From the NCBI RefSeq assembly GCF_900156495.1, contig NZ_FTNT01000002.1, forward strand, positions 130,359-154,358: a stretch of 24,000 bases of DNA. The letters are read 5' to 3'. Numbering within the stretch: position 1 is the first letter of the stretch; the number at the start of each line of letters is the position of its first letter. Below are positions 7,089 through 24,000 of the stretch, piece by piece. This DNA comes from Williamsia sterculiae (GTDB taxonomy: Bacteria > Actinomycetota > Actinomycetes > Mycobacteriales > Mycobacteriaceae). The position numbers and the translations under genes are program-made. The notes below the pieces were generated by a model. The model was given only the letters and a program-made list of their open reading frames with translations. It did not search any database and was not told the DNA's origin.

Positions 7089-7130
7089 CTGTCTGCATCA
7101 CGCGCGCCTGTCAGCGGCGGCCACCGCGTC

Positions 7131-8056: not shown

Positions 8057-8247
8057 CCCATCACCCCCAACGCACGTAGCAGAACACCTCACATGTCTGC
8101 TACTGATTGTGCCCACTCCGGGTGATGACGTCAGGCAGGCCGGTCGACGGTGAGTCGCGCGTACTCGTGCACGGCGAGCGGCATTGCCAGGACCGGCGAT
8201 CTTGGCACTTCCCCTGACCGAGTGGTGTGTGTAGGGTCACAGTGTCC

Positions 8248-8273
8248 AATGTGAGACGACGGTGTCTCACATT
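8248..8273. promoter_or_regulatory. Candidate TetR operator palindrome
   Basis: AATGTGAGAC (8248-8257)-N6-GTCTCACATT (8264-8273) has perfect 10-bp arms. It lies 30 nt upstream of the lipase start codon in the TetR/lipase divergent intergenic region. Confidence 0.45.
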
Positions 8274-8302
8274 TACCCGAGGCGCTGTAGAGGTGGCATG
8301 AC

Positions 8303-9679: not shown

Positions 9680-10208
9680 TGACCTTCCGGGCCTCGGGCC
9701 AGAAGGCATACCCGGTGATGCCGAGCCCGCCGAGCCCGATGATCATCACCGCTGCGTCGACACTCGTCCGTCCCTGTTTGGCCCAGTAGACGTCCTCCAG
9801 GTCGAGGAGAAGGGCCAACTCGTCGACGATCAGTGCCGTTCCCAGTCCGTAACTCAGAGCGGTGGCGGGATGTTTGTGGTGGCGTTCGGAGCCCCGGATG
9901 GCGGTGGCGCCCACGGCACCGAGAAGGGCGATACCGATGTTGTAGTGGTGGAAGTGTTGACCGCCCACGCTCATCCCACCGCCCGCCGGGCCGTGGCCGG
10001 CTCTGATCCAATGCGTGAGCGCGCGAACGGCGCCGAAGGTGGTGGTGAATGCCGCCCACGACAACACCGCCGACTGCGCACCCGGATCCAGTGTCTTGTG
10101 CCACGTTCTACGAAGTTGCGTCCCGCGACCGGGAGTCGGCGGATCGGCGTCGCGGCGCGAGTCGATCACGGTCGACTGTGGTGCGGACTGCGCCGTTGCA
10201 TCATCCAT
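9672..10208 (-). CDS. Integral membrane protein of unknown function
   Basis: The ORF is 9672..10256 (TTG). I prefer the ATG at 10208 (MDDATAQ...). There are about four hydrophobic helices (AVLSWAAFTTTFGAV, HFHHYNIGIALLGAVGATAI, ALSYGLGTALIVDELALLL, AAVMIIGLGGLGITGYAF). It lies directly downstream of the esterase gene on the same strand, and its 3' end overlaps the lipase 3' end by 8 nt. Confidence 0.65.
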   Translation of the reverse strand: MDDATAQSAPQSTVIDSRRDADPPTPGRGTQLRRTWHKTLDPGAQSAVLSWAAFTTTFGAVRALTHWIRAGHGPAGGGMSVGGQHFHHYNIGIALLGAVGATAIRGSERHHKHPATALSYGLGTALIVDELALLLDLEDVYWAKQGRTSVDAAVMIIGLGGLGITGYAFWPEARKVIT

Positions 10209-10275
10209 TCGTCCACCATGCACCCTGGTCGGCTCGTGAGGCTGTGAAAAGACCAAGTGTTGGCGACGCCACGGA

Positions 10276-11718
10276 TCAGACCCTCAACTCCTGGGAGAAC
10301 CAGCCGAGCGCGTCGGAGAACGCGGCCGCCGCGAATTGCCAGGAATGAGTACCCGGCTGTGTGTGCACGTCACACCGTATTCCCACGGTCTTCCCGGTCG
10401 CACACAGCTGTTGGGCTGCGGCGAGTTCGGTTCCGGGCGGGGTGTGGGTCTGGTCGCGACCGCCCAGGCCGGTCCCACCGGACTGTCCGGATTTCCATCG
10501 GTGCTGTGGGCCACCCTGCCCGGGCGGCCGCGGTCGACCCGACGGTCGACCCTGACCGGGCCACTGCCCACCGCCGAAGTGACCCGGTCCGCGATCGCCG
10601 CCGCTGCTGTCGTCGAACCATCCGGTGGTGCGCGCGTACGCACCCGGTGTCTTCGCGGCGGTGGCCTTCATGACGGTCGTGGGGTCGAAGGCATCCCACT
10701 GGGCGGCGTCACCGCCGAAGAGCCGGCTGATGGTCTGGGACTTGTCGCCGGACGACGGTGCCGCGTCGCCCGCGATGTCCTCGAACGCGGAGAACAGGTC
10801 CGGATGCATCACGGCGAGGTCCACGGCGCACGTTCCGCCCATCGACCATCCGACGACACCCCACTGCGCCGCACCGTCGGCCGCGCCGAAGTGCGAGATC
10901 ACATAGGGTCGCACCTCTGTCACCAGGTGGTCGGCAACGTTGCCGCGCGAACCGTTGACGCATTCGGTGTCGTTGTTGAAACTGCCGCCGACATCCGGGA
11001 ACACCAGGATCGGAGCCGCGCCGCCGTGAGCCTCGGCGTAGGTGTCGATGGTCCGCACCGCGTTTCCGGTCCGGATCCAGTCGGCGGGGGTGTTGAACTC
11101 GCCGGCGATCATCATGATCACGGGCAATCGGGCGGCGGTCGAACCGACGAACCACTGCGGTGGCAGGTACACGTACTCGGTGCGGTGGCTGAAATGACTA
11201 CTCGAGTCGGGCGTGGTGATGGCGACGACCTTGCCGGTGGTCTGTTGATGCCCGCGCAGCCCGGCCAGCGCCGACGCGTCCACCTGGTCGGGGAGCGGTC
11301 CCGCGGTCGTCTGTGCCCATGCCTCCTGCACGGTGGTGAAATATCCGACCCACTGGTTCAGCACGATGCCGGTGGCCAGAGCGGTGACCACGATCGCCAC
11401 CACCGAGAGCACTCGGCGCCACCATCGGGTGCGTAGGAACCCGACGACGGCCGCCGCGACGGCGAAGCCGGTCATCGCAACCCACCACCACAGCAACTGC
11501 GGTGGCGGATCGGAGGAGAGGCCCTCGGATCGGTTCACCGACCAGGCGATGCCGAATGCCGCAGCACCCACCGCCACGCAGACGGGGATCCAGATCAGCC
11601 ACCAGCGACGCGACCGACGCGCCACGACGGCCAGCAGGACGACCGCCGCCAGCACCTGCACCACGATGGGTAGCCAACCGCCCAGGAGGGACAACCCGTG
11701 TTCCGCACCACCACGCAC
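10276..11718 (-). CDS. Membrane-anchored esterase-D/antigen-85-type serine hydrolase
   Basis: The C-terminal approximately 300 aa carry esterase-D-type features: LPVIMMIAGEFNTP, the nucleophile elbow GWSMGG, and the terminal GTHSWQFAAAAFSDALGWF. The N-terminus has 3-4 TM helices. The supplied ORF extends to 12330, but that extension overlaps the convergently placed GGCT gene. I place the start at GTG 11718, which is uncertain. Confidence 0.75.
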   Translation of the reverse strand: MRGGAEHGLSLLGGWLPIVVQVLAAVVLLAVVARRSRRWWLIWIPVCVAVGAAAFGIAWSVNRSEGLSSDPPPQLLWWWVAMTGFAVAAAVVGFLRTRWWRRVLSVVAIVVTALATGIVLNQWVGYFTTVQEAWAQTTAGPLPDQVDASALAGLRGHQQTTGKVVAITTPDSSSHFSHRTEYVYLPPQWFVGSTAARLPVIMMIAGEFNTPADWIRTGNAVRTIDTYAEAHGGAAPILVFPDVGGSFNNDTECVNGSRGNVADHLVTEVRPYVISHFGAADGAAQWGVVGWSMGGTCAVDLAVMHPDLFSAFEDIAGDAAPSSGDKSQTISRLFGGDAAQWDAFDPTTVMKATAAKTPGAYARTTGWFDDSSGGDRGPGHFGGGQWPGQGRPSGRPRPPGQGGPQHRWKSGQSGGTGLGGRDQTHTPPGTELAAAQQLCATGKTVGIRCDVHTQPGTHSWQFAAAAFSDALGWFSQELRV

Positions 11719-11829
11719 GGCACGCAGTATGCACGCGGTGGCTGTCAGTTCTCTGTGAGTGTCCGGCCATACCGAGGAGTCGACGGGTCGCGCACGACAC
11801 GCGACACCGACAGCGGGCAAGCTGAACCC

Positions 11830-12201
11830 ATGCACCGACTGTTCTCCTACGGAACTCTGCGCGATCCCGCAGTACAGCAGGGTGTGTTCGGCCGTGACGT
11901 GGTCACCGTCGACGCCGCACTGCGCGGTTTCCGGTTGGGATGGGTGACGATCACCGATCCCGGGGTGATTGCGATGAGCGGCACCGACCGCCACCGGATA
12001 GTGCGGCCCGGAGACCCGTCCGACGTCGTCGACGGTGCATACCTGGAGCTGACCGACGACGAGCTGCGCGCAGCGGACGACTACGAGGTGGACGATTACG
12101 TCCGGGTGGCAGCGGCGCTGGCATCGGGTGAGCGTGTCTGGGTGTACGTCGCGGCGACCGATGCGGCGCACGCAGCGACAACCACGGCCGACCGGGAATG
12201 A
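11830..12201 (+). CDS. Gamma-glutamylcyclotransferase-like (AIG2/GGCT family) protein
   Basis: An internal ATG at 11830 in ORF 11698..12201 gives MHRLFSYGTLRDPAVQQGVFGR.... The LF.YGTL N-terminus is typical of the GGCT/AIG2 fold. The protein is 123 aa. Confidence 0.7.
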   Translation: MHRLFSYGTLRDPAVQQGVFGRDVVTVDAALRGFRLGWVTITDPGVIAMSGTDRHRIVRPGDPSDVVDGAYLELTDDELRAADDYEVDDYVRVAAALASGERVWVYVAATDAAHAATTTADRE

Positions 12202-12902
12202 CGTGGCGTCCGGTGCATCGGCGATACAGTCGCGGTATGCCGATCCCCACCGTGGTCGAGGCGGTCGTATTCGACTGCGACGGACTGCTGCTCGACACCG
12301 AGACATGTTGGTCCCGGGCCGAGGCGGCACTGTTCGCCGAATACGGTCACGAATTCGGCCCTCCGGAGAAGGACCTCCTCATAGGCCGGACGCTGGGAGC
12401 TGCCTGTGCCAATATGGCGGAGTATTTCGGGCTACCCGGCCAGGGGCCTGCGCTGCAGCGGGAGCTGATGCCCCTGGTCGAGGCAGAACTCGGTGCCGAC
12501 GTCCAACCCATGCCGGGTGCGGTCGCCCTACTCGAACTCCTCGCCGGCCGCGTGCCACTGGGCATTGCCACCAACAGCACCCGGAGCCAGTTGACCGCCG
12601 CGTTGCAGGCCTCAGGTCTGGGGGCCTACTTCGACATCTCGGTCACTGCCGACGACGTGACCAACCCCAAACCCGATCCCGACCTCTATCTCCGGGCGTT
12701 CGAGCTGCTGTCGGCATCAGCGAACCGCGTTGTCGCGCTGGAGGATTCGGTCACCGGAGCGACTGCGGCCCGCGCATCCGGTGCTTTCCTCATCACCGTT
12801 CCGTCGCAAGTGGGCAAGTGTGTGGAGGCCGATCACCTGGTGCCGCGACTCGACGATCCCTCGCTCACGCGGTGGGCTTCAGCAGTGGTCGGTGTTCGAT
12901 GA
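12198..12902 (+). CDS. HAD-superfamily hydrolase (subfamily IA, beta-phosphoglucomutase/phosphatase-like)
   Basis: Motif I is VVFDCDGLLLDTE, motif II is GIATNS, and motifs III/IV are NPKPDPDLY...ALEDSVTGATAARASGA. The ATG at 12198 overlaps the GGCT stop (ATGA). The alternative ATG at 12237 (MPIPTVVEAVVFDCDG) would give a more typical N-terminus. Confidence 0.85.
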   Translation: MTWRPVHRRYSRGMPIPTVVEAVVFDCDGLLLDTETCWSRAEAALFAEYGHEFGPPEKDLLIGRTLGAACANMAEYFGLPGQGPALQRELMPLVEAELGADVQPMPGAVALLELLAGRVPLGIATNSTRSQLTAALQASGLGAYFDISVTADDVTNPKPDPDLYLRAFELLSASANRVVALEDSVTGATAARASGAFLITVPSQVGKCVEADHLVPRLDDPSLTRWASAVVGVR

Positions 12903-12921
12903 AGTCAGCGGAGGTGACCGG

Positions 12922-13137
12922 GTGAAACGCACAGTGGTCGAGTGCTCCCAGGGGGCGCGCTACGCGACGCTGTGGTGGCCGTTGGGGTCGTTCAATGCCG
13001 TCCGTCTCGGTGGCGTACGCATCCAACGGTGCCCGGTACACCACCGCTGGGAACGGACCCGACGCGTGGACCCCGCTGCGCTCAGCCTCGCCGAGCGCCG
13101 GGCCGCCGAGTCCATCCGCGACATCGGGATCATCTGA
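12922..13137 (+). CDS. Small hypothetical protein (71 aa, Cys/His-containing)
   Basis: A GGAGG Shine-Dalgarno at 12910-12914 lies 7 nt before GTG 12922. Translation is (M)KRTVVECSQGARYATLWWPLGSFNAVRLGGVRIQRCPVHHRWERTRRVDPAALSLAERRAAESIRDIGII. By my count about 60 of 71 codons end in G/C. It fills the otherwise empty 250-nt gap between the HAD and Clp_N genes. Confidence 0.45.
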   Translation: MKRTVVECSQGARYATLWWPLGSFNAVRLGGVRIQRCPVHHRWERTRRVDPAALSLAERRAAESIRDIGII

Positions 13138-13152
13138 CACGCGGGACGGCAC

Positions 13153-13884
13153 TCAGCGGTCGATGAACTGCTGGAGTTGTTCCACCACGGCATGTTCGAA
13201 CGCCTCCGCGGTGACGCCGGACTCGGTGAAGACCGGCCCGACCGACAGGTCGGCGAACAAAGCGATCAGCAGGTGTTCGGTTCCGACGTAGTTGTGCCCC
13301 AGCCGCAGGGCGATCTGAACGGTGTCCTCCAGCACCACCTTGGCGGCGTCGTCGTAGGGAACGAACGCCGTGGCCTCCCGGTCGTCATCCTGTCCGCCGG
13401 TCGATCCCGCCAACCGTTGTGTCATCGCGTCGACGTCCACACCCAGTTGGGCCAACGTGGTCACGCCGAGTGACCTGTTCTCCGCGAGTACACCCCGTGC
13501 CACCAAGGCCGATGTGACGTGTGATGACCCCTCGGCAATGGCCAGGTTGTGCGCGCTGATGACCGCATTGCGTGCCCGAGGGGTGAAGCGGGCGAACGGA
13601 TTCGACTCGCCGCTCTCGGGTGGCTGGGGCGCCTGCCCGACAAATCGCTTCTGAGCGGCCTGCTTGCTGACACCCATGCTCTGACCGATCGCGGTCCAGG
13701 ATGCGCCTGCACGACGTGCCTGGTCGACGAAGTGGCCGATCAACGCATCGGCGAGATCGCCGAGGTACTCACCCGCGGCCACTGCCTCGGACAGTTGCTG
13801 GAGTGGGTCGAAGTCGGTGTCACCGATGGCGTCGATGAGATCTCCGAGTCGGATGGTGGACGAGAACGTCTTGTCTGATGGCAT
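13153..13884 (-). CDS. HTH + Clp N-terminal (Clp_N) repeat domain protein
   Basis: 243 aa. The N-terminal part carries an HTH-like segment (ASWTAIGQSMGVSKQAAQKRF). The C-terminal part carries two Clp_N-type repeats (FTPRARNAVISAHNLAIAEGSSHVTSALVARGVL and AAKVVLEDTVQIALRLGHNYVGTEHLLIAL). Confidence 0.82.
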   Translation of the reverse strand: MPSDKTFSSTIRLGDLIDAIGDTDFDPLQQLSEAVAAGEYLGDLADALIGHFVDQARRAGASWTAIGQSMGVSKQAAQKRFVGQAPQPPESGESNPFARFTPRARNAVISAHNLAIAEGSSHVTSALVARGVLAENRSLGVTTLAQLGVDVDAMTQRLAGSTGGQDDDREATAFVPYDDAAKVVLEDTVQIALRLGHNYVGTEHLLIALFADLSVGPVFTESGVTAEAFEHAVVEQLQQFIDR

Positions 13885-13931
13885 GCGTCAACCGTAGGTT
13901 GACGCAGCGACGTCGTCAACCGTGGGTTGAC
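13885..13931. promoter_or_regulatory. Tandem palindromic operators plus leaderless-type promoter of the Clp_N gene
   Basis: GCGTCAACC-gta-GGTTGACGC lies at 13885-13905 and GTCAACC-gtg-GGTTGAC at 13915-13931, with centres 28 bp apart. The minus strand reads TTGACG (13919-13914), a 17-nt spacer, TACGGT (13896-13891), 6 nt, then ATG (13884). That is a -35/-10 pair placed to start transcription at or next to the start codon. Confidence 0.5.
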
Positions 13932-14016
13932 ACTCGTCTCGATCGGCCACGGTCGTTGTCGTCGATGTCTACGATCGTCAGGATGACGCGTGGTTCGGTG
14001 ATCCGACAGCGGTGAT

Positions 14017-15654
14017 GTGATGGAGGATCCCGTGGTTGGAGAGTTGCGCCCCGAGATCGCACTCGGATGGCGCCGCTCGCAGATGAGCGGTCTCGACCCG
14101 GGAATGGAGGTCAGGGAACCGCGCCTGTTCGAGGTGGACCGGCACAGTCGGTTGATCCACGCGGCGAAACCCGTGTTGACCAGCATGGTTCGGGAGCTGG
14201 ACGACACCCGTTTCTCGATCCTGTTGGCCGATCACTCGGCGCGGATCGTCGATCGTCGGCTGAGCAACCGGACACTGCACCGTCACCTCGATCGGGTGAA
14301 GGCCATTCCCGGGGCCCAGTACATCGAGGAACTCAGCGGGACCAACTCCCTGTCCACCGCCTTCGAATTGCGAAAGCCCATTTCCGTAGCGGGTGACGAG
14401 CATTTTCTCGAGGCGCTGCGGGTGTTCTGTTGTTACGGGGCGCCCATCATCCACCCGATCACCCGCAGGCTGGAAGGTGTCCTCGATGTCACCGGTCCCG
14501 TCGCCGATCAGAGCAATCTGCTCGGGCCATTCCTCATGCGTGCCGTCCGGGACATCGAGCAACGCCTACACGAGGGATCCCGGCTGAGCGAACAACGGCT
14601 GTTCGCCGATTTCCAGTCCGAGTCGGCGCGCAACAAGAACGCCTTGGTCCTGTTCGGCGAGAACCTCGCCTTGAGCAACGCGGCAGCGATGGATCTCATC
14701 AGCAGCGACGACAACCCACTCTTGCAGGCGATCGCCGCCGAGGTCGACGGGAGCAGCCGCTTGACCCGATCGGTGTCGCTGACGTCCGGTCGTGACGTCG
14801 ACATCCATGCGCGATTGGTCGCGGACAGCCGTGACGGTGTGATCATGGAGGTCGTCCCCCGGCAGAGACAACCCGCGAGGCGGGCGATACGTGACGTCGA
14901 CACCGGCCGGCCCACCCGACGCTGCGTTCTCGTCACCGGGCCGCCCGGCAGCGGCCGGTCGACAAGGGCTCGCGAGATGGCCGGAAACAGCGCCGTCGCG
15001 GTCGATCTGGCGGATGATGACGGACATCTGCGTGAGCAACTCGTCAGCGTGTTCGCCGATTCCGCGGTTCTGATCCTCGACAACGTGCACGCCGCCGACG
15101 CCTCGACCGTCACGTACGTGCGGCACGCGTTGAGTTCGGCCCGACCTACCGTGATCATCGTGTGCGGATCGGTAGAGGAGCTCTCCGAAGAACATCAGGC
15201 ACTCGCCGCGACGGCCGACGAGACCGTCGAATTGCCCCACCTTCGGGACATCGGTCACACCTTCGCCACGACCGTGCAGGCGATGGTGTCGGAAGTCGCC
15301 GCATCGAATCTCGCGGAGCCCGCTTCCCGAACCGGTTCGCAGTTGCGGATGACTCCCTCGGCGCTGGCGGTTCTCGCCGAACAGGATTGGCCGGGAAACC
15401 TCGCCGAGCTGGCGCGTGTCGTCCGTGTCGCGGCCCGTGGCCGGTCGTGTGGTGACATCACCGCGGATGATCTGCCCGAGTCACACCGACGACGACCCGC
15501 GCGTGGACTCACCCCGCTGGAGCGGGCCGAACGGGCGACGATCTCGGCCGCGATGGCGGAGCACGGCGGCAACAAGGTCGCGGTGGCCCACGCCCTGGGA
15601 ATCGGGCGCAACACCCTCTACCAGCGACTCCGCTACTACCGGCTCGTCAACTGA
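14017..15654 (+). CDS. AcoR/NtrC-like transcriptional activator (N-terminal sensor, degenerate AAA+ core, C-terminal Fis-type HTH)
   Basis: 545 aa, starting at GTG 14017 or ATG 14020. It has an AcoR-type N-terminus (LRPEIALGWRRSQMSGLDPG), a P-loop-like VLVTGPPGSGRST, a Walker-B-like VLILDNV, WPGNLAEL, and a Fis HTH_8 (GGNKVAVAHALGIGRNTLYQRLRYYRL). Confidence 0.85.
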   Translation: MMEDPVVGELRPEIALGWRRSQMSGLDPGMEVREPRLFEVDRHSRLIHAAKPVLTSMVRELDDTRFSILLADHSARIVDRRLSNRTLHRHLDRVKAIPGAQYIEELSGTNSLSTAFELRKPISVAGDEHFLEALRVFCCYGAPIIHPITRRLEGVLDVTGPVADQSNLLGPFLMRAVRDIEQRLHEGSRLSEQRLFADFQSESARNKNALVLFGENLALSNAAAMDLISSDDNPLLQAIAAEVDGSSRLTRSVSLTSGRDVDIHARLVADSRDGVIMEVVPRQRQPARRAIRDVDTGRPTRRCVLVTGPPGSGRSTRAREMAGNSAVAVDLADDDGHLREQLVSVFADSAVLILDNVHAADASTVTYVRHALSSARPTVIIVCGSVEELSEEHQALAATADETVELPHLRDIGHTFATTVQAMVSEVAASNLAEPASRTGSQLRMTPSALAVLAEQDWPGNLAELARVVRVAARGRSCGDITADDLPESHRRRPARGLTPLERAERATISAAMAEHGGNKVAVAHALGIGRNTLYQRLRYYRLVN

Positions 15655-15812
15655 TCGTCAGGACACCTCAGCAGCCGGCTCGTACTCCCTCGGAGAGTGT
15701 TCAAAACCAGGACACTTCCGCTTCCGTCACCCGGTGGACAGTGATGGGAGTCATAGTTCAGGGCCGATGTCGCAGCATTGACGACTACATCGGTCCTCCG
15801 AGAGGAGTTGCC

Positions 15813-17255
15813 ATGAGTACGCCCACCGATGTCAGATACGCCAACGTCATCAACGGCGAGACCCGATCATCGGCGGAGTCGGCACCCGTCTACAACCCCG
15901 CCACCGGTCAGGTGTTCGCGGAGGTACCGGTCGCAACCCGGGCCGACCTCGACGACGCCGTGACGGCCGCCGCGGCGGCATACCCAGGATGGTCGGCGAC
16001 ATCGGCGGCCGAACGCGCCGCGGCGGTGTCCGCCATCGGCGACCGACTGGAGGCGCACGCCGAGGAGTTCATCACCCTGCTCACCGCCGAACAGGGCAAA
16101 CCGCGGTCGATGGCCGAGTGGGAGGTGTACGGAAGCGTCGCGTGGTTCCGCGAGATCGCCAAACAACAGCTGCCCGACGAGGTCGTCGAGGACACCCCTG
16201 AACGCAGGGTGATCAGCCGGTACACGCCGCTGGGTGTGGTGGGCGCCATCGTCCCGTGGAACTTCCCCATCCTGCTCGCGGTCTGGAAGATCGCCCCGGC
16301 CTTGGTGACCGGCAACACGATCATCGTCAAACCTTCACCTTTCACCCCACTGTGCGATCTGAAATTGGTCGAACTCGTGCAGGATCTGCTGCCGCCGGGT
16401 GTGCTGAGTGCGCTTTCCGGTGACGACGATCTGGGCAAGTGGATGACAGTGCACCCCGGTATCGCCAAGATCGCGTTCACCGGCAGCACGGAGACCGGAC
16501 GTCACGTGATGGCCTCGGCGGCGGGCACGCTCAAACGGGTGACGCTGGAGCTCGGCGGCAACGACCCTGCGATCGTCTTGCGAGACGTGGACCCGCAGAA
16601 GGTGGCGCCGCAGATCTTCTGGGCCGCCTTCCAGAACAACGCGCAGTTCTGCAACGCCGCCAAGCGGATCTACATCCACGACGACGTCTACGACGCAGTT
16701 CGCGACGAGCTGGTCGAATACGCGAGGTCTGTGGTGGTCGGCGACGGGTCGCACCCGGACACACAGCTCGGCCCGATCCAGAACAGGCCACAGCTGGCCA
16801 AGGTGACCGAGTACTTCGACGACTGCCGAAAGAACGGGTACACCTTCGCGCTCGGTGGGGAGATCGACACCGAATCCGAAGGGTGGTTTGTGCCGGTCAC
16901 CCTGGTGGACAACCCGCCCGAGGACTCCCGGTTGGTCGCCGAGGAACCGTTCGGCCCCATCCTCCCGTTGCTGAAGTGGTCCGAGGAAGACGATGTGGTC
17001 GCTCGCGCCAACGACACCGTGTGGGGTCTCGGCGCCACGGTGTGGGGAGACGACCTCGAGGCCGTCGAGCGGATCGGACGACGTATCGAGGCTGGAACCG
17101 TGTGGCTCAACGAGGTGCACCAGTACTCGCCGCACCAGGTGTTCGGTGGCCACAAACAGTCCGGCATCGGCGCCGAGAACTCGCTACACGGTTTGGCCGA
17201 GTACACCAATTATCAGACCGTCTGCCTCAACCGCGCGCCGGGAACAGTTGCCTGA
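15813..17255 (+). CDS. NAD(P)+-dependent aldehyde dehydrogenase
   Basis: ATG at 15813 with an AGAGGAG Shine-Dalgarno; the ORF track opens at 15741. ALDH motifs are present: VPWNFP, FTGSTETG, VTLELGGNDP, the catalytic Cys context NNAQFCNAAKRIYI, and EEPFGPI. The protein is 480 aa. Confidence 0.93.
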   Translation: MSTPTDVRYANVINGETRSSAESAPVYNPATGQVFAEVPVATRADLDDAVTAAAAAYPGWSATSAAERAAAVSAIGDRLEAHAEEFITLLTAEQGKPRSMAEWEVYGSVAWFREIAKQQLPDEVVEDTPERRVISRYTPLGVVGAIVPWNFPILLAVWKIAPALVTGNTIIVKPSPFTPLCDLKLVELVQDLLPPGVLSALSGDDDLGKWMTVHPGIAKIAFTGSTETGRHVMASAAGTLKRVTLELGGNDPAIVLRDVDPQKVAPQIFWAAFQNNAQFCNAAKRIYIHDDVYDAVRDELVEYARSVVVGDGSHPDTQLGPIQNRPQLAKVTEYFDDCRKNGYTFALGGEIDTESEGWFVPVTLVDNPPEDSRLVAEEPFGPILPLLKWSEEDDVVARANDTVWGLGATVWGDDLEAVERIGRRIEAGTVWLNEVHQYSPHQVFGGHKQSGIGAENSLHGLAEYTNYQTVCLNRAPGTVA

Positions 17256-17262
17256 CAGCGCG

Positions 17263-18801
17263 ATGACCCATTCTCGACCCACCACCAGCATTGCCGAGGT
17301 CTTGCCCTGGCGCGCGCGCATCCATCCGGACAAGCCCGCGCTGATCGTCGGAGATCGGTCGTTCTCCTACGTCGACCTCGACACTCTTTCCAACAGGGTT
17401 GCGGCCGGGATGCGTTCGTCGGGGGTGCGCCCGGGTGAGGTGGTGTCGCTCTTCGGTCAGAACAGTTGGCAGTGGATCGTGGCCTATCACGGCATCCTCA
17501 AGGCGGGTGCGGTGGTCAATCCGGTGAACGTGATGCTGACCGGATCGGAATTGCGGTACGTGTTGCAGGACTGCGGAGCACGGGCCCTGTTCATCGGCGC
17601 GACCGAGTACGAGCGGGTCGCGGGCGAGCTCGAGGGGTTGCCGCTGTTGGCCTGTGTCACGCTCGACGCGGAATTCGACACCCTGCTCGACGGTGCCGAC
17701 CCGGGCTCGGTGCCGCCGGTCGACTGCCGGCCCAAGGCGCTGGGCAGCATCGGCTACACGTCGGGGACCACCGGACATCCCAAGGGGGCCATGCAGTCTC
17801 TGGAGTCGGTCCTCCTCAACTGCGCCCACACGGCCGCCATGCATGGCAAGAACGCCGACGACGTCATCCTGTCGGCGCTACCTGCGGCGCACGTCTACGG
17901 CAACGTTGCGATCAACGGCACCTTCCTGGCGGGTGGCACCGTCGTGCTGATGGAGCGGTTCGACCCGGTCGCCGCACTGCATCTCATGCAGTTGCATCGG
18001 GTCACGGTGTTCGAGGGTGTCCCGGCGATGTACTCGATGTTGCTGGCCACCGATGACCTGTCCGCGGTGGATCTCAGCGCCATCAGGGTGTCGACCGTCG
18101 GCGGCCAGACGTTCTCGCCGTTGATCATCGAGAAGTGGGAGAAACGCACGGGCGCACCATTACTCGAACTCTGGGGTATGACGGAGCTGTCCGGACTGGG
18201 CACCACGCATTCGGTGTACGGGCCGCCGTGCCCGGGGTCCATCGGCGTGTCCTTACCCGGTACGGAGATCTCGCTGGCCCCCATGGACGGCCAGAGTGGA
18301 GAGGTGTCCGCGGGTGAGCCGGGCGAGCTCATGATCCGTGGTCCGTTGGTCATGCTCGGATATTTCGGTAATCCCGCGGGGACCGCGGAGGTCCTGGGTG
18401 CAGACGGTTGGCTGCGCACCGGTGATGTGGCCTACCTCGACCAGTCCGGACATGCGTTCATCGTCGACCGCCTCAAGGACATGATCATCACCGCCGGATA
18501 CAACGTGTATCCAGCCGAGATCGAACGCGTGGTCGCCACCCATCCGGATGTCGCGATGGTTGCGGTCGGGCGTCGTCCCGATCCGATCAAGGGTGAGATC
18601 GCCGTCGCCTACATCGTGCCGCGACGCGACGCACGACCGGATGTCGCCGACATCCTGCAATTCTGTTCCGAGCGGTTGGCCGCCTACAAGCGGCCAAGGG
18701 ATGTGGTCCTGGTTGATCACCTTCCGACCACGTCGTCGGGAAAGTTACTGCGCCGCAAGCTCGATGAACTTGGTCCACACGCTCCAGCGCAGGTCGGCTG
18801 A
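17263..18801 (+). CDS. AMP-dependent acyl-CoA synthetase/ligase (FadD-like)
   Basis: ATG at 17263, 7 nt after the ALDH stop; the ORF track opens at 16993. Adenylate-forming motifs are present: YTSGTTGHPKGA, GMTE, TGDVAYLDQSGHAFIVDRLKDMI, GYNVYPAEIE, and the C-terminal SSGKLLRRKL. The protein is 512 aa. Confidence 0.93.
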   Translation: MTHSRPTTSIAEVLPWRARIHPDKPALIVGDRSFSYVDLDTLSNRVAAGMRSSGVRPGEVVSLFGQNSWQWIVAYHGILKAGAVVNPVNVMLTGSELRYVLQDCGARALFIGATEYERVAGELEGLPLLACVTLDAEFDTLLDGADPGSVPPVDCRPKALGSIGYTSGTTGHPKGAMQSLESVLLNCAHTAAMHGKNADDVILSALPAAHVYGNVAINGTFLAGGTVVLMERFDPVAALHLMQLHRVTVFEGVPAMYSMLLATDDLSAVDLSAIRVSTVGGQTFSPLIIEKWEKRTGAPLLELWGMTELSGLGTTHSVYGPPCPGSIGVSLPGTEISLAPMDGQSGEVSAGEPGELMIRGPLVMLGYFGNPAGTAEVLGADGWLRTGDVAYLDQSGHAFIVDRLKDMIITAGYNVYPAEIERVVATHPDVAMVAVGRRPDPIKGEIAVAYIVPRRDARPDVADILQFCSERLAAYKRPRDVVLVDHLPTTSSGKLLRRKLDELGPHAPAQVG

Positions 18802-18933
18802 CGGTTATCCCACAGGGATAGACGGTCACGCCGATGTCTGTCCCGGAGGTGAGTGCGCCAGCACACAGTCGGCGGGCAGTGTGACCTACACGACATACAG
18901 CCGGCAAGCCGGCACAGGCACAAGGGAGAACCC

Positions 18934-19347
18934 ATGACAGTAGTGGCCGAGGGATACAACGCCTTCGAAACATCCAAATCGCCGGTCGGAGAGGTGAAGT
19001 ACCTCGACTCGCCCCAGGATGTCATCGAGATCGTCCAGTCCGGCCGGCTCGGCGAGTACATCCTGCTGGTCCGGGGTGGCACCACCACCTTTCTGACGCC
19101 GGCCCTGAGCATGGGCGCCATCGGAGTCATCACGATGTCCGGTGCACCCGAATCGCACCTGGGCATCCTGTCCAGAGAGTTCCAGATCCCGTGCGTGATG
19201 ACCGCACACCTGACCGACAGCGACTCCCGGTACGAGGTCGGCAACACCGGCAACGCACATTTCGTCGCCATCACCGACGCACTCGAGGGCAAGAAAGTGC
19301 AACTGCACTGCGACGACGCCGACACCGGCCGCGTGAGCCTCGTCTGA
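18934..19347 (+). CDS. Stand-alone PEP-utilising-enzyme mobile (phosphohistidine swivel) domain protein
   Basis: ATG at 18934 with an AAGGGAGA Shine-Dalgarno; the protein is 137 aa. The pattern ILLVRGGTTTFLTPALSMGAIGVITMSGAPESHLGILSREFQIPCVM matches the swivel-domain consensus (ILV...T.P....M....GI.T..GG.TSHAAI.AR..GIP.V), with the His retained in an ESH context. Confidence 0.75.
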   Translation: MTVVAEGYNAFETSKSPVGEVKYLDSPQDVIEIVQSGRLGEYILLVRGGTTTFLTPALSMGAIGVITMSGAPESHLGILSREFQIPCVMTAHLTDSDSRYEVGNTGNAHFVAITDALEGKKVQLHCDDADTGRVSLV

Positions 19348-19366
19348 ACCACCGAAGGGACAACGA

Positions 19367-20803
19367 ATGACCATCAACGCCGAAGCCGGATCCACAGCAA
19401 CCTTCAAACAGCGATATGAGCCGTCGGACGACGGTCTGCGATTTCAGGAACTGACCTTCGAGGGCAACTTCGTCGGGCAAGAACCGGTCACCGACGGAAT
19501 CCTCGGAGACAAGACGATGCGTTCACGCGCCAAGAGCGCCGTGCTGGAGAGGGTCTCCAAGGAGGACGTTCTGCGCGATCAGTTCACCCTCGATGAACTG
19601 AACGACCTGAACAACTACCTGGCCTGGAACATCTGGGACACCCTGGTGATGCGGGCCACCGAGGGCGTCTCGGGGATGATCCCCCGCCAGGAGTACGAGA
19701 TCCTCGCCTTCATGCACGAGTTCTACCGGTGGCCGGAGTTCCTGCGGTTGGCGACCGACGCGGTCGGCCCCCAGGGCCTTCTCGACATCGGCGCCACCGC
19801 GCGCCGCGAGGTCGGCACCAAGATCAACTCCGTGCACGATTGGGCCATCGGTGCGGTCGGATTCGGCATGGGCCGATGCAGTCTGCTGGCGTTGGAGGCG
19901 ATCGGTCCCGACGACTACGTCGACGAGTCCAACACCATGCTGAAGTTCATGCAGCGCATCTTGTGGGGCAAGCGCCAGGACGGCTACATCCTCAACTCGC
20001 AGGACCGGTACCGCTGCACCATCCACGACGACGACTTCCTGCAGACACTGGTCGATCAGTTGATCCCTCTCGAAGACGGCGGTCCGGATCACAGTGCGCT
20101 GACCCGGTTCAACGCCGCGGCCGAGCTGTTGGCCTTCCTGCAGCATTTCGACAACCGCCTCGGCCTCGGCGACACGGGGCCCTATGAGCTCCCCAACGGC
20201 AATCTGCTGATCCTGCGTGACCTGTTCGTCAACGAGCCGATCTACCACTGGTCCGATGTGTGTGAGGACGCCGGTCTGCCGTATTCGTACACCGTTGCGC
20301 TCGAGATCGATCCGAACGCGATGGGCTTGCAGGAGATCCGGGTGAACGACATCTCCACCACGTTCACCCGGCCGAAGAACTACATTCCCGCCATCGTGGG
20401 TGGGGCCGTGTTCGCGCGGGGCAAGCACGACAGTCCGATGAGCGAATTGCGAGCGTTGTCGATCGGTGAGTTGGCCGACGAACTGCCCAAGGTGCAGGAC
20501 GCGACCCTCAAGCTGTACCGCAAGATCTCGCGGATGCCGCGTCGGGACCTGATCTGGTCGGGCCAATACGTCTATTACGTCGACATGATCCTGCCGTATC
20601 TCCGAGGCGCGGGAGTCTACGACAAATGCTGTCGAGACCTGCAACTGTGGGAGATCGACCAGCGCGTGGCGAACTACTACTACGACATCACCAAGCGCGG
20701 GTTCGCGCAGGAGACCGTCCCGCACAAGATCTTCTCCGGGCGTGGGTACCTGCCGTTCGGTGAGAACGCCGATCTACGCGCCTCCAAGTACCGGTGGCTC
20801 TGA
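19367..20803 (+). CDS. Uncharacterised 478-aa soluble protein (no family recognised)
   Basis: ATG at 19367 with a GAAGGGA Shine-Dalgarno, 19 nt after the swivel gene. It is a long ORF with normal amino-acid composition (W/Y/F-rich, balanced charges), unlike the Arg/Pro-rich shadow ORFs. I saw no TM segments and no nucleotide-binding motif. Antisense ORF 19523..20725 is a typical shadow. Confidence 0.85.
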   Translation: MTINAEAGSTATFKQRYEPSDDGLRFQELTFEGNFVGQEPVTDGILGDKTMRSRAKSAVLERVSKEDVLRDQFTLDELNDLNNYLAWNIWDTLVMRATEGVSGMIPRQEYEILAFMHEFYRWPEFLRLATDAVGPQGLLDIGATARREVGTKINSVHDWAIGAVGFGMGRCSLLALEAIGPDDYVDESNTMLKFMQRILWGKRQDGYILNSQDRYRCTIHDDDFLQTLVDQLIPLEDGGPDHSALTRFNAAAELLAFLQHFDNRLGLGDTGPYELPNGNLLILRDLFVNEPIYHWSDVCEDAGLPYSYTVALEIDPNAMGLQEIRVNDISTTFTRPKNYIPAIVGGAVFARGKHDSPMSELRALSIGELADELPKVQDATLKLYRKISRMPRRDLIWSGQYVYYVDMILPYLRGAGVYDKCCRDLQLWEIDQRVANYYYDITKRGFAQETVPHKIFSGRGYLPFGENADLRASKYRWL

Positions 20804-20900
20804 CCCCACCCGGCCCGCACTCCGCACGACTGGGTGCGCGGTACGCGACCCCGAGACGGGCCGGGTACCGCGCACACGGTACGCGAACCCAAGGAACCTC

Positions 20901-21521
20901 ATGCCCTCCACCCTGCTGGACAAGGACCTGTACGACGCGCTGAACGCCGTCGCACTGAAGAAGATGACGACGGTCGCCGGCGTCACGACCGTCACCACAC
21001 TCGAATCCGACACGGCCAGACGTGCCCTCGATGATCTCGCCGACCGGAAGTTGATAGTGCTCGTCGGCGACAACGCGTTGCCCACCGACGACAGTGCACA
21101 GGCACTATACGAGTCCGCAGCCGCCATCTACGCCCCGTTACGTGACGATCCGGCCGTGCTGACGGTCGCGGACAAGTTCGAGGACGTCAACAGCCGTTTC
21201 CTGACGGCGATGTCGGCCTGGCAACAGGTCGAGGTCGGAGGGCGCAAGATCGCCAACGATCATTCCGACGAGGAGTACGACAGCAAGATCATCACGCAGA
21301 TCGATCGCCTGGTGTCGCGGCTGAGCGGCCTGTTGGAGACGTTGGGGGAGCGCGACCCTCGATTCGGTTTGTACATCACTCGCTTCCGGCAGGCGCTGGA
21401 TGCCGTCGACTCGGGCGACCCGGGAGCCGTCTCAGATCCCACCCGCGACTCCGTGCACAACATCTGGTTCGAATTTCACGAGGACCTGCTCCGCACATTG
21501 GGTCGAAAGCGAAAGGAATGA
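20901..21521 (+). CDS. Uncharacterised 206-aa protein (possible winged-helix-like N-terminus plus helical domain)
   Basis: ATG at 20901 with an AAGGAA Shine-Dalgarno; the ORF track opens at 20742. Translation begins MPSTLLDKDLYDALNAVALKKMTTVAGVTTVTTLESDTARRALDDLADRKLIVLVGD.... The stop overlaps the start of the dikinase-like gene (ATGA at 21518-21521). Confidence 0.78.
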   Translation: MPSTLLDKDLYDALNAVALKKMTTVAGVTTVTTLESDTARRALDDLADRKLIVLVGDNALPTDDSAQALYESAAAIYAPLRDDPAVLTVADKFEDVNSRFLTAMSAWQQVEVGGRKIANDHSDEEYDSKIITQIDRLVSRLSGLLETLGERDPRFGLYITRFRQALDAVDSGDPGAVSDPTRDSVHNIWFEFHEDLLRTLGRKRKE

Positions 21522-24000
21522 CCACCATGGGTGTGGCACCAGCGACTCGTGCGGACACCACGCGCGCCTTCACCGATCCCGGGGACGTGGACGTCGACGA
21601 CGTCGGCGGCAAGGGTTTCGGGCTCATCGAGATGACGCGGGGCGGGTTGCGGGTACCACCGGGTTTCGTCATCTCCACCACCGAGTGTCACCGATTCCTC
21701 GACACGGGCGAGTTGGCACCGGAACTGCTCTCCCGGCTGCGCTCTCGGCTCACCGACCTCGAGGCCACCACCGGGAAATCCTTCGGCGGCGGCCCCCTGC
21801 CATTGCTGCTGTCGGTGCGCTCCGGTGCCCCGATATCGATGCCGGGGATGATGGACACGGTGCTCGACCTGGGCATCAGCAGAACCTCCGCTGTTGCGCT
21901 GGCCGAGGTGACCGGAGACAACCGCTTCATGGCCGACGTGGTCTTCCGTTTCCACGGTATGTACGCCGAGACGGTGCTCGACGCCTTCGACATCCCCGAC
22001 CACGAGCGGCTCACCGACGTCCTCGCAGAGCTTGCCGACGACACGTCAGCCGAGGACGTCTTCGACGCGGTCTGGTCGTACTGCGCGGACCAGCTCGCCA
22101 CCGACGGTGACGCTCGGGTGCCCACCGACCCGATGGACCAGTTGGTCGGCGCGATCGAGGCTGTGTTCCGGTCGTGGAACACCCGGCGAGCAGTCACCTA
22201 TCGTGAGCTCCACGAGATCCCTCACGACATCGGTACCGCGGTGGTCATCCAGTCGATGGCTTTCGGCAACCTCGACGCCAACAGTGGCGCCGGCGTGGTT
22301 TTCACCCGTAATCCGGCGACCGGTGAACCCGGCATGTTCGGTGAGTACCTCGAGGCCAGCCAGGGCGAGGACGTGGTCGCGGGGGTACGGACTCCCGACC
22401 CGGTGCACACGATGTCGGACAAGGTCCCGCAGGCGTATGCCGAACTGGTGGAGACATGTGCGGAGATGGAGCACAAGCGCAAGGACATGCTCGACATCGA
22501 GTTCACGGTGGAGCGTGGCACGTTGTACCTGCTGCAGGTGCGCAGTGCCAAACGTACTGCGCGCGCGGCGATCCGCATCGCCGCGGACATGTACGACGAG
22601 AACATCCTCGATGCACGGGCTGCGGTGACCTCGGTGTCTCCGGAGCAGATACGCAATGTGCAGCGACCGGGTTTCGAACCAGGCGAGCTCGCCACCGCCA
22701 GAGCGGACGGGCGGGTGGTCGCCTGCGGTGTGGGTGCCTCACCCGGCCAGGTGGTCGGTGAGTTGTACCTCGACTCCGAGGCTGCGCAGTCGGCGGCACA
22801 GGACGGTCGACGGGTCATCCTGGCCCGCCCGGTGACCAGCCCGACCGACCTGCACGGGATGATCGCCGCGGACGGAATCGTCACCGCCACCGGCGGTTCG
22901 ACATCCCACGCAGCAGTTGTGGCTCGCGCCCTGGGAACCACGTGCATCGTGGGATGTGCCGCACTGCAGATCGATCCGTCCATGGGGACCATGACCGTCG
23001 GCGACCGGACGTGGAAGTCCGGGGACACGGTGAGTCTCGACGGCTCGACCGGGGAGGTGATCGACGGTGCGATCGGTCTGGTCGACGGAGCCGCCGGGGA
23101 CGGTGGAGATCTGGCCCGGCTGTTGGACATCGCCGCGCGCACGGCCGCCGACGAGAGGATCCTCGGCCGCGCACACACCGTCGACCAGGTGGCGGAGGTG
23201 CTCGAGCGCGGTGCTGACGGTGTGGTGTCGGCGGTCGACGACGTCCTGATCACCGTGGGGCAGATGGAGTCCGTCATCACCGATCTGGAGCAGGGGCAGG
23301 AGTTGGCGACCGCGGCCGCGACGCTGGAGACGGCCATCGCGGAGACCTTCGCTCCGCTGTTCACTGCGGCCGGCGACACCGAATTCGATGTTCGTGGGCT
23401 CGATTTCCATGCCGACGACGTCGCTGAGGTGTTCGCGGTCACCAACCTGCTCGCGATCCACCCGCAAGTGGCCATGCCGCTGGGATCGACGGAGCTGGTG
23501 ACGGCGCAACTGCGTGGCCTGGCGCGCGCCGCCGAGGGCACGGCCGTCAGGGTGTGCTTCGTCAGCCCGCGCACCAGCGGTCCGTTGGAGGCGCGTGCTC
23601 TCCGAGAACTTCGTGATCGGCTTGGTGTAGCGATCTCCGTCGGCTGCTATGTGACCAACACCCAGGGCGTGTTGAGCCTATCCGACATCGCCGCCGAGGT
23701 GGACCACGTCTGGCTCGAACTGCAACGTCTGCAGGCAGCGACCTACGGGATACAGCCGAGGCATCTACTGTCCGCTGAGCCATTGGACGGGTACGTACGC
23801 GACAACCTGATCGACATCGACCCCCGCAAACAGATCAGCCCATTCGTCGAGCACCTCATCGATGATGCTCTGACGCAGTTGGAGAACCCGGCACACCTCC
23901 GTATCCGGTTGGCCGGACGCGTCTCCGAGGCCACGATCGGCGCGTTGCGGGACAAGGGCGTCCGGACCTACGCGGTGGCCTCGGATGAGATCCGGCCCGC
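21518..24000 (+). CDS. Pyruvate,phosphate dikinase-like protein (ATP-grasp + His-swivel + divergent C-terminal barrel), 3' end outside window
   Basis: It is absent from the supplied track because no stop occurs before the window end; I translated it codon by codon. The start is ATG 21518 or 21527. The PPDK_N region reads VGGKGFGLIEMTRGGLRVPPGFVISTTEC, LLSVRSGAPISMPGMMDTVLDLG, VVIQSMAFGN, GVVFTRNP.TGE, GEDVVAGVRTP and DIEFTVERGTLYLLQVRSAKRT. The swivel region reads ASPGQVVGELY...VILARPVTSPTDLHGMIAADGIVTATGGSTSHAAVVARALGTTCIVG. A long antisense shadow ORF lies at 22222..23574. Confidence 0.9.
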   Translation, partial: MTTMGVAPATRADTTRAFTDPGDVDVDDVGGKGFGLIEMTRGGLRVPPGFVISTTECHRFLDTGELAPELLSRLRSRLTDLEATTGKSFGGGPLPLLLSVRSGAPISMPGMMDTVLDLGISRTSAVALAEVTGDNRFMADVVFRFHGMYAETVLDAFDIPDHERLTDVLAELADDTSAEDVFDAVWSYCADQLATDGDARVPTDPMDQLVGAIEAVFRSWNTRRAVTYRELHEIPHDIGTAVVIQSMAFGNLDANSGAGVVFTRNPATGEPGMFGEYLEASQGEDVVAGVRTPDPVHTMSDKVPQAYAELVETCAEMEHKRKDMLDIEFTVERGTLYLLQVRSAKRTARAAIRIAADMYDENILDARAAVTSVSPEQIRNVQRPGFEPGELATARADGRVVACGVGASPGQVVGELYLDSEAAQSAAQDGRRVILARPVTSPTDLHGMIAADGIVTATGGSTSHAAVVARALGTTCIVGCAALQIDPSMGTMTVGDRTWKSGDTVSLDGSTGEVIDGAIGLVDGAAGDGGDLARLLDIAARTAADERILGRAHTVDQVAEVLERGADGVVSAVDDVLITVGQMESVITDLEQGQELATAAATLETAIAETFAPLFTAAGDTEFDVRGLDFHADDVAEVFAVTNLLAIHPQVAMPLGSTELVTAQLRGLARAAEGTAVRVCFVSPRTSGPLEARALRELRDRLGVAISVGCYVTNTQGVLSLSDIAAEVDHVWLELQRLQAATYGIQPRHLLSAEPLDGYVRDNLIDIDPRKQISPFVEHLIDDALTQLENPAHLRIRLAGRVSEATIGALRDKGVRTYAVASDEIRP

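Follow-up and report, generated by a model that had tools for sequence, protein, structure and literature searches.

HpeHI, CreHI, and PpsAB are two-component dikinases, related to rifampin phosphotransferase, that phosphorylate a poorly reactive hydroxyl group to start catabolism, and they split the underlying ATP-grasp and phospho-histidine swivel chemistry over several polypeptides. The same split, together with a proposed role of the same kind, is found in a block of four genes of Williamsia sterculiae, located at the end of a 24,000-nucleotide stretch of contig NZ_FTNT01000002.1 (positions 130,359 to 154,358; the entire stretch is referred to as the window). The block encodes a free-standing swivel protein, two proteins termed X478 and Y206, and a protein resembling pyruvate, phosphate dikinase (PPDK). 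We consider it an evenly balanced proposition that the four genes form one multi-protein relay dikinase for a small non-pyruvate substrate, the product of which is oxidized and then dephosphorylated. The chemistry as such belongs to the known phosphoenolpyruvate (PEP)-utilizing/dikinase superfamily. The two-swivel relay, the stripped barrel of its PPDK-like component, the X478 family, and the near-obligate association with the microcompartment type MIC1 appear to be undescribed in the literature that was searched.

In the Cre pathway of Corynebacterium, a P450 as well as alcohol and aldehyde dehydrogenases reportedly oxidize the phosphorylated substrate before a phosphohydrolase acts. The Hpe pathway comprises the dikinase HpeHI, a carboxylase specific to the phospho-intermediate, the HAD phosphatase HpeD, and the AMP-forming CoA ligase HpeE (PMC9618137, PMC12167813), and the enzymes of the Cre pathway are listed in PMC8796525. 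By analogy, the phosphorylate-transform-dephosphorylate logic of both pathways is proposed for the module investigated here. VadK (Rv1127c) of M. tuberculosis is a truncated PPDK showing ATP/Mg-dependent autophosphorylation on its swivel histidine; it is reported to regulate methylcitrate-cycle enzymes and to be tightly bound by its small operonic partner Rv1126c (PMC13400623). MIC1, in turn, denotes a “metabolosome with incomplete core”, equipped with an acylating aldehyde dehydrogenase and devoid of a signature enzyme and a phosphotransacylase (PMC4207490), to which a later microcompartment catalogue assigns no further function (PMC8217296).

The four genes and the spacer between the second and the third of them are arranged as follows:

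18934-19347, plus strand: free swivel gene, 137 aa, matching Pfam PF00391
19367-20803, plus strand: X478 gene, 478 aa, no family match
20804-20900, plus strand: X478-Y206 intergenic spacer with a predicted stem-loop
20901-21521, plus strand: Y206 gene, 206 aa, no family match
21518-24000 and on past the window end, plus strand: PPDK-like gene, 836 aa in full, PPDK_N and PEP-utilizers domains

A gap of 19 nt separates the swivel gene from the X478 gene, and the Y206 stop and the PPDK-like start share an ATGA overlap. An earlier, sequence-only reading of this DNA had described four co-directional, tightly packed genes, and its coordinates, gaps, and overlap were all confirmed on the plus strand. 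The shorter start codons it had preferred likewise agree with the lengths of the homologues. Longer starts, yielding 164 aa for the swivel and 259 aa for Y206, are not supported, the homologues being 137-142 aa and 201-206 aa long. A Y206 protein recorded from W. sterculiae is 100% identical to that of the window, and the 3′ end was read from a contig carrying it, L092, of which positions 1-13100 equal window positions 10901-24000 at 100% identity and which runs 7.5 kb further; in it, the PPDK-like stop codon lies 28 nt downstream of the last window position. With the ATG at 21518 as start, the protein has 836 aa, the start selected by the gene caller 3 codons downstream giving 833 aa. On the basis of homologue numbers and synteny, the four genes are clearly genuine and tightly linked.

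In order to assess the conservation of the block, X478 was used to scan one genome per species, which returned 162 relatives. The best 80 loci were analyzed by mapping the reference proteins onto them with tblastn. Of the 69 loci long enough to hold the complete block, 67 show the order swivel, X478, Y206, PPDK-like protein, which thereby extends far beyond the Mycobacteriales, the order within which conservation had originally been suggested for inspection. Carriers among the best 80 loci include Actinomycetota (Gordonia, Millisia, Rhodococcus, Nocardia, Pseudonocardia, Amycolatopsis, Actinomycetospora, Nakamurella, Microbacteriaceae, and others), Proteobacteria (Bradyrhizobium, Methylocella, Xanthobacter, Roseiarcus, Burkholderiales, and Dokdonella), and one Vulcanimicrobiota metagenome-assembled genome (MAG). 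The latter (L080) is one of the two exceptions, with swivel and X478 followed by a BMC-H gene and neither Y206 nor a PPDK-like gene nearby; in the other one, a gammaproteobacterial MAG (L086), a PPDK-like gene was not detected after Y206. Between phyla, identity amounts to about 70% for X478 and 61-72% for the swivel, compared with 30-37% for Y206 and 35-47% for the PPDK-like protein (35-38% in most proteobacterial loci). Since X478 is far more similar than Y206 and the PPDK-like protein of the very same loci, it is under unusually strong constraint, beyond what recent transfer alone would account for.

The PPDK-like protein carries a PPDK_N domain (PF01326, E = 4.7e-41), a PEP-utilizers domain, and the motif GGSTSHAAVVARALG. 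Its swivel histidine, His464 in GGSTSHAAVVAR, aligns to the catalytic His455 of PPDK and is kept in all 24 orthologues compared, in which the nucleotide-binding motifs GGKG and SVRSGA..SMPGMMDT are invariant as well. When the single sequence was searched, the alignment with PPDK was limited to residues 29-569; a profile of the 24 orthologues spans residues 6-870 of the PPDK structure 1kbl (E = 8.6e-209). Because this profile aligns along all of PPDK, the C-terminal domain is a homologous (TIM) barrel. The columns of the PEP/pyruvate site were read off the alignment of the 24 orthologues to 1kbl, using the established C. symbiosum PPDK numbering. The Arg617 position is kept in 24 of 24 sequences. 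Position Glu745 holds T, Q, S, or A and never Glu, position Asp769 holds E, R, V, L, A, or T and never Asp, and position Cys831 is Val in 20 of 24 and never Cys; the Asn768 position is mostly Arg, with Asn in a single sequence. For Arg561, the 24-sequence tabulation covers the adjacent column (V/I/L/A/M); in the true column, for which the window sequence and the family consensus were consulted, both hold Ala (Ala572 in the window), and the window protein has no Arg at either of the two columns. Among the six positions checked, Arg617 alone is fully kept.

Family models point in the same direction. Of the domain searches recommended by the sequence-only reading, PF01326 and PF00391 gave matches within the block, and the C-terminal PEP-utilizers domain PF02896 was not detected by Pfam in the PPDK-like protein. 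The PPDK equivalog TIGR01828 was missed with 557 bits against a cut-off of 843, and the NCBIfam model NF004531/PRK05878 of the VadK/Rv1127c type was passed with 513.3 bits against 456 (residues 25-587). An ordinary PPDK, an outcome that the earlier reading had listed against its own interpretation, is ruled out by the barrel-site residues. Judged from these columns, the barrel has lost its pyruvate/PEP site, and therefore the phosphoryl group of His464 cannot go to pyruvate and would have to leave the protein. Compared with PPDK, the protein thus retains the full-length alignment, the nucleotide-binding motifs, the catalytic histidine, and the three-domain order; it differs by the lost site residues and by traveling with three partner proteins.

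The first of these partners, the free swivel protein, matches PF00391 with E = 1.8e-8. Its predicted phospho-carrier is His75 within motif SGAPESHLGILSRE, and both this histidine and the motif ESHLGILSRE are at least 98% conserved in 86 swivel orthologues. The domain content described by the earlier reading, one ATP-grasp domain plus two histidine swivels, is seen in the Pfam matches.

X478 and Y206 had been regarded as orphans. In the sense of taxonomic restriction this designation does not hold, as 608 homologues were detected for X478 and 369 for Y206; by similarity, both are large conserved families without names. None of the X478 homologues is named, the best 120 share 72-90% identity, and the proteobacterial ones 68-72%. 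Neither protein showed a confident match to a characterized family with an unrelated role: X478 found no match in Pfam, NCBIfam, or the Protein Data Bank (PDB) sequences, and Y206 none in the Pfam and NCBIfam family searches. Pfam scans of 41 diverse X478 relatives and a search of an X profile against PDB sequences returned only the fused swivel described below. The AlphaFold2 (AF2) model of X478 (pLDDT 79.5, pTM 0.86), compared with the PDB by Foldseek, gave nothing at E <= 0.001, the top hit having E = 0.24 and a probability of 0.07. As confirmed by sequence search, the PDB copy contains chains of PPDK, PEP synthase, enzyme I, and rifampin phosphotransferase, and the X profile matched no rifampin phosphotransferase chain although such chains are present. 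Neither Foldseek nor the PDB profile search showed any similarity of X478 to a PEP-binding fold. Near-invariant across the superfamily are the arginines R96, R170, R264, and R284 and several aromatic residues, and these arginines would be compatible with a phosphate-binding site. By analogy, we propose that the small swivel serves X478 as the domain for acceptor binding or phosphotransfer.

For Y206, the AF2 model (pLDDT 94.3, pTM 0.89) shows an N-terminal winged helix of ~60 residues and a helical bundle. Structural matches are confined to the winged helix (~70-110 aa) and comprise MarR, PadR, IclR, and the N-terminal/dimerization domains of O-methyltransferases; the helical remainder gave no clear structural match and is not MarR-like. 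The C-terminus holds the invariant motif HNIWFEFHEDLLRTLGR. The family is acidic, with an isoelectric point (pI) of ~4.8 overall and a median of ~4.3 for the winged-helix part. Some databases label Y206 homologues as “MarR family transcriptional regulator”. A plain MarR repressor was judged unlikely in view of the acidic charge and of the fusion to X in relatives. For these two reasons, Y206 is more likely an accessory structural or docking subunit or domain of the X enzyme than a DNA-binding protein. Both this label and the name “pyruvate, phosphate dikinase” on homologues of the module proteins are probably misleading, because the PEP-site residues are lost and the winged helix is acidic and fused to an enzyme.

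An exhaustive HMMER search extended the X478 family to remote relatives at 25-45% identity, and six of 41 distant relatives carry an N-terminal PEP-utilizers swivel. P0128, P0130, and P0136 unite swivel, X, and Y in one chain, and P0137, P0169, and P0224 swivel and X. The free swivel of the window shares 53% identity with the N-terminal swivel of P0130, and the C-terminal ~120 aa of the fused proteins are homologous to Y206 (E = 4e-15); in the fusions of 772-794 aa, this Y206-like domain ends in H.IWMELHEDLL.TLGR, as Y206 does. In L091, a PPDK-like gene comes after the fused one, matching the order of the window. In L090, it adjoins a PPDK-like protein of 555 aa, consisting of an ATP-grasp domain and its own swivel GGLVSHAAVVAR and having no barrel, and a short PPDK-like protein is also its neighbor in L093 (Rhodococcus opacus B4 plasmid pROB02, 122974-137442). 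As the pairing of a charger carrying its own swivel with a second swivel attached to X and Y is kept in these distant fusions, the two-swivel design is conserved over deep divergence. The fused genes of L090 and L093 lie in a Cre-like gene set of P450, ferredoxin, reductase, aldehyde dehydrogenase (ALDH), zinc-dependent alcohol dehydrogenase (Zn-ADH), Y_phosphatase3, and two APH/EcKL-type kinases, which resembles the Cre pathway. The same clusters further contain an ADP-forming acyl-CoA ligase and a 372-aa protein without assignment. Short PPDK-like relatives are numerous (at least 8000 scored hits at E <= 0.001), several being fused to ferredoxin and one (P0496) to Y_phosphatase3.

A divergent set was observed on the megaplasmid of Methylibium petroleiphilum PM1 (L094, 480093-492536), directly upstream of the hcm genes for the 2-hydroxyisobutyryl-CoA mutase/ligase of the methyl tert-butyl ether (MTBE) pathway. 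It consists of DUF7064, an X protein (415 aa, 31% identity), a 153-aa protein, a 149-aa swivel, a Y-like gene annotated as “MarR”, and a PucR-type regulator. The Y-like gene, located near the swivel and X genes, shows 35% identity to Y206, and no PPDK-like gene was found within 9 kb.

Based on this evaluation, we propose the following relay. The ATP-grasp domain of the PPDK-like protein would bind ATP, and probably inorganic phosphate as well, and its own His464 would become phosphorylated. The phosphoryl group would then pass to His75 of the free swivel, most likely in a His-to-His transfer, and the small swivel would deliver it to X478, an arginine-rich domain that would hold the small non-pyruvate acceptor, with Y206 as its putative non-DNA-binding structural or docking subunit. 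A split phosphoryl relay with a target different from pyruvate, in which the 478-aa protein would be the partner on the substrate side, had already been suspected by the sequence-only reading, and the fixed gene order, the swivel-X-Y fusions, and the lost pyruvate site support it. We are highly confident of the observation, the module, and the genomic context and moderately so of the relay mechanism, whereas our confidence in any particular substrate is low. Which way the group is transferred, what X478 does, and in which order the pathway runs are inferences, as is the His-to-His step, which is deduced from the strict conservation of both histidines.

The genomic surroundings of the module were evaluated in those 56 loci that are flanked by 9 kb or more on each side, counting genes within 10 kb. 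Among the annotated contigs, the first shell genes beside the module were found in Millisia, Rhodococcus sp. ACS1, and Ornithinicoccus. Overall, 53 of the 56 loci contain a shell gene, BMC-T being present in 48, and an HAD hydrolase plus a DUF7064/7065 protein in 47. An EutJ-like protein occurs in 46 loci and is absent in the genome of the window, and a BMC-type aldehyde dehydrogenase, of the acylating EutE type in the reference locus L006, occurs in 44. The module is convergent with HAD and DUF7064 in 37 loci, whereas DUF7064, HAD, and module share one strand in 10; in the proteobacterial shell loci, DUF7064, HAD, module, and BMC-H are co-directional and the remaining shell and enzyme genes divergent. 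Overall, shell, HAD, and DUF7064 genes are found near the module in three different arrangements. The HAD enzyme is phosphoglycolate-phosphatase-like, yet stays below every NCBIfam cut-off. For the W. sterculiae locus, the following neighbors were recorded, with their frequency among the 56 loci where it was determined:

14032-15654, plus strand: MimR/AcoR-type activator (HTH_8 and AAA_lid_14; PF26965 MimR_N), 3 loci
15813-17255, plus strand: non-acylating aldehyde dehydrogenase (Pfam Aldedh, E = 9.5e-148), 8 loci
17263-18801, plus strand: AMP-forming acyl-CoA ligase (Pfam AMP-binding and AMP-binding_C), 15 loci
L092 13189-20621: MIC1-type locus, starting ~60 bp past the PPDK-like stop

The earlier reading had named an aldehyde dehydrogenase, an acyl-CoA ligase, and an activator as the informative neighbors. 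Their identities stand by Pfam, but they are not the most conserved ones: ligase and aldehyde dehydrogenase are lineage-specific accessories. The activator, whose PF26965 match was recorded for the identical L092 gene and the Millisia orthologue, is a probable regulator of the cluster in the lineage of the window only. A substrate link to acetone or acetol, suggested by the MimR-type regulator, was dropped as a specific claim because this regulator is found in only three of the loci.

Downstream of the module in L092, the minus strand carries genes for BMC-H, HAD, and DUF7064; those for BMC-P, BMC-H, AldDH, BMC-T (CsoS1D type), an enzyme of the lactate dehydrogenase (LDH) family, and Zn-ADH come next, on the plus strand. 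Thus, the MIC1 feature set of two BMC-H, BMC-P, BMC-T(dp), AldDH, LDH-family enzyme, Zn-ADH, and HAD is found entirely within 7.5 kb. The AldDH is homologous/orthologous to the acylating EutE-type enzyme of L006, and no phosphotransacylase gene was called in L092. Such a set of genes is what the published catalogues class as MIC1, and the module loci include two strains listed there under this type, Rhodococcus sp. ACS1 and Pseudonocardia thermophila DSM 43832. The module also exists without shell genes, namely in Methylocella silvestris TVC, Xanthobacter, and Allosphingosinicella (L068, L077, and L078; covering 8.5-10 kb upstream and 6-10 kb downstream). In these variants, Zn-ADH, acyl-CoA ligase, ALDH, DUF7064, and HAD are located ahead of the module. 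It stands alone in L087 and has a sugar-type neighborhood in the Pseudonocardia locus L002.

Extending the relay into this context, the phospho-intermediate would be oxidized by the neighboring alcohol and aldehyde dehydrogenases, in the genome of the window presumably inside the MIC1-type microcompartment with participation of the acylating aldehyde dehydrogenase. The HAD phosphatase and a Y_phosphatase3 or SurE phosphatase would later remove the phosphate, and the acid product would be activated by the acyl-CoA ligase. As acceptor, a C2-C3 diol or hydroxy-carbonyl compound is our guess, attractive because of the phosphoglycolate-phosphatase-like HAD enzyme and the C2-type acylating dehydrogenase. 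A more specific version is tentative, and we rather doubt it in full: the module as the signature enzyme of MIC1, a double-swivel His-to-His dikinase with a new acceptor domain, whose substrate would be a small alcohol, diol, or hydroxy-carbonyl compound of C2-C3 size and through which the toxic aldehyde stage would be passed in phosphorylated form inside the shell, with the VadK-type proteins as reduced relatives of the charger.

Measured against HpeHI, CreHI, and PpsAB, the module shares the conserved phospho-carrier histidine in the acceptor-side swivel (His75 here). In those systems, however, the ATP-grasp subunit lacks a swivel, whereas it has its own in the window, in 24 of 24 orthologues, and in the short form of L090; likewise, their single swivel is located C-terminal to a rifampin-binding-type domain, while the second swivel is free or N-terminal here. 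Further differences are the PPDK-derived charger with its dead barrel, the extra subunit Y206, and X478 as acceptor candidate. A gene content unlike that of PpsABC and rifampin phosphotransferase had been noted previously. The PEP-dependent phosphotransferase system (PTS) with enzyme I and HPr needs a PEP donor barrel; the module, in contrast, has no PF02896 match and has lost the PEP-site residues, and the gene calls of the annotated loci include no member of the HPr family. VadK is, like the proposed charger, a PPDK derivative in which pyruvate chemistry has been given up, but it is reported to be regulatory and not to serve a catabolic dikinase, and its barrel is wholly absent (~490-550 aa), whereas the window protein retains a degenerate one in its 836 aa. 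The architecture of VadK is shared by the short PPDK-like partner of the fusions (L090, 555 aa). VadK was not among the best 120 relatives of this short protein, and relatives of ~414 aa, looked up by cluster for a link to M. tuberculosis, were all environmental or Actinomycetospora proteins.

Among microcompartments, the downstream gene set of L092 matches MIC1. RMM1/AAUM offers a parallel to the proposed pathway in that a kinase-made phospho-intermediate gives rise to an aldehyde, which is then handled in the interior of an actinobacterial microcompartment. AldDH phylogeny places it nearest, among the characterized types, to MIC2, the closest relative of which is MIC1. RMM1/AAUM utilizes an APH-family kinase and a pyridoxal phosphate (PLP)-dependent phospho-lyase and no swivel chemistry, and the MIC1-type loci investigated here are without a class-III aminotransferase.

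Three other explanations of the module have to be weighed against a catabolic relay dikinase. The four proteins might constitute a signaling chain, headed by a histidine autokinase of the VadK type and continued by swivel, X478, and Y206, which senses a metabolite and controls the neighboring enzymes or the microcompartment, either via contacts between proteins or via the Y206 winged helix, while no metabolite is phosphorylated. This explanation, which we hold to be unlikely though deserving attention, draws on the passed Rv1127c-type NCBIfam model, on the autophosphorylation of VadK, its binding to methylcitrate-cycle enzymes, and its tight complex with Rv1126c (PMC13400623), and on the MarR-like winged helix of Y206, named MarR by some databases. 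The very same winged helix is acidic (pI ~4.3), though, and Y206 is fused to the enzyme-like X in relatives; a protein of 478 aa remaining ~70% identical across phyla, as X478 does, would be unusual for a sensor domain. Dedicated regulators (MimR-type, PucR-type, IclR, and SorC) are already present in the loci, and the partners that persist, phosphatases and dehydrogenases, are of the kind found in catabolic dikinase pathways.

The module could also run in reverse, collecting a high-energy phosphoryl group from an acyl or enol phosphate via X478 and both swivels and transferring it to AMP and pyrophosphate to yield ATP, thereby replacing phosphotransacylase and acetate kinase, a pair missing from MIC1 loci. 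In its favor, MIC1 combines an acylating aldehyde dehydrogenase with the lack of a phosphotransacylase (PMC4207490), the nucleotide domain resembles PPDK and not PEP synthase, the PPDK reaction being reversible, and the presence of the module in almost every such locus would fit a core function. Against it, the module is accompanied in the window and the shell-less variants by a non-acylating ALDH plus an AMP-forming ligase, a combination that consumes ATP and needs no CoA recycling, the closest partners are phosphatases (HAD and Y_phosphatase3) that would waste the phosphoryl group, and the X478 sequence gives no hint of CoA or acyl binding; on balance, we regard reverse operation as improbable. 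Least credible of all is a re-invented pyruvate enzyme, in which X478 replaces the dead barrel as a new pyruvate/PEP-binding domain and the module acts as a gluconeogenic, PEP-forming dikinase on C2-C3 products. A neighboring enzyme of the LDH/malate dehydrogenase (MDH) family could make pyruvate, and Arg617 of the old barrel is kept. Nevertheless, such a function gives no reason for a degenerate barrel and three additional proteins where the ancestral single chain sufficed, the fused relatives are found in P450/ADH/ALDH clusters unrelated to central metabolism, and X478 is unlike any PEP-binding fold.

Several considerations weigh against the relay dikinase itself. To our knowledge, there is no citable direct precedent for a His-to-His transfer between two swivel domains; alternatively, the ATP-grasp domain could charge the small swivel without an intermediate. 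The PPDK reaction is reversible, and the module could consequently run towards ATP. X478 is without recognizable fold or catalytic motif, its putative acceptor role being derived from its position in the fusions and from analogy, and the HAD enzyme could be a pyrophosphatase instead of acting on the product. No microcompartment is located within 10 kb in L035, L077, L087, and the Pseudonocardia locus L002, and coupling of module and microcompartment is therefore not obligatory. Published microcompartment catalogues list no dikinase module, X478, Y206, or DUF7064 for MIC1; PF01326, PF00391, and “PPDK” are absent from the supplementary tables of PMC8217296, and our literature search found no link of the module or of any dikinase to MIC1. 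The relay as a whole is built on sequence, models, and genomic context.

MIC1 has been without a proposed substrate or signature enzyme since 2014, and the module, which nearly always adjoins a MIC1-type locus and in Proteobacteria lies inside it, provides a concrete entry point. Two swivels combined with a stripped barrel would, if true, represent a new phospho-histidine wiring between the one-swivel dikinases and the multi-carrier PTS. The ligand of X478, once found, would allow hundreds of genes to be annotated in Actinomycetota and Proteobacteria from soil and may hint at what VadK-like truncated PPDKs phosphorylate. If the VadK-type “PPDKs” of pathogenic mycobacteria are reduced relatives of the charger, their acceptors could be sought among X- or Y-like partners.

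On the RNA level, the spacer between X478 and Y206 (20804-20900) has a minimum free energy of -42.8 kcal/mol with z = -1.78 against dinucleotide shuffles. The equivalent spacers have a median length of 83 nt and reach z < -2 in 58 of 81 loci against mononucleotide shuffles. This weakly suggests that the predicted stem-loop may act as an intra-operon attenuator or mRNA-stability element, through which swivel and X could be expressed differently from Y and the PPDK-like protein. Rfam gave no match near threshold for a riboswitch or other ligand-hinting RNA across the 20.6-kb extended locus, and consensus scans for promoters and terminators yielded nothing informative. Just 3′ of the PPDK-like stop, at L092 13129-13175, a perfect GC-rich hairpin GGGGCCTGACACC...GGTGTCAGGCCCC without a T-run was observed. 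It resembles a bidirectional terminator of the actinobacterial type, placed between the module and the BMC-H gene convergent with it.

The catabolic cluster starts only at the MimR-type regulator (~14032), and the genes upstream of it are unrelated. They comprise a pair resembling the MprB/PepD envelope-stress system, i.e., a HAMP/HisKA/HATPase sensor kinase (1028-2569) and a trypsin-like PDZ protease (2735-4384), a TetR regulator (7394-8116, minus strand), and a secretory lipase (8303-9679, plus strand). These are followed by a 684-aa esterase-domain protein (10276-12330, minus strand), small GGACT and HAD_2 genes (11698-12902, plus strand), and a Clp_N-domain protein (13153-13884, minus strand).

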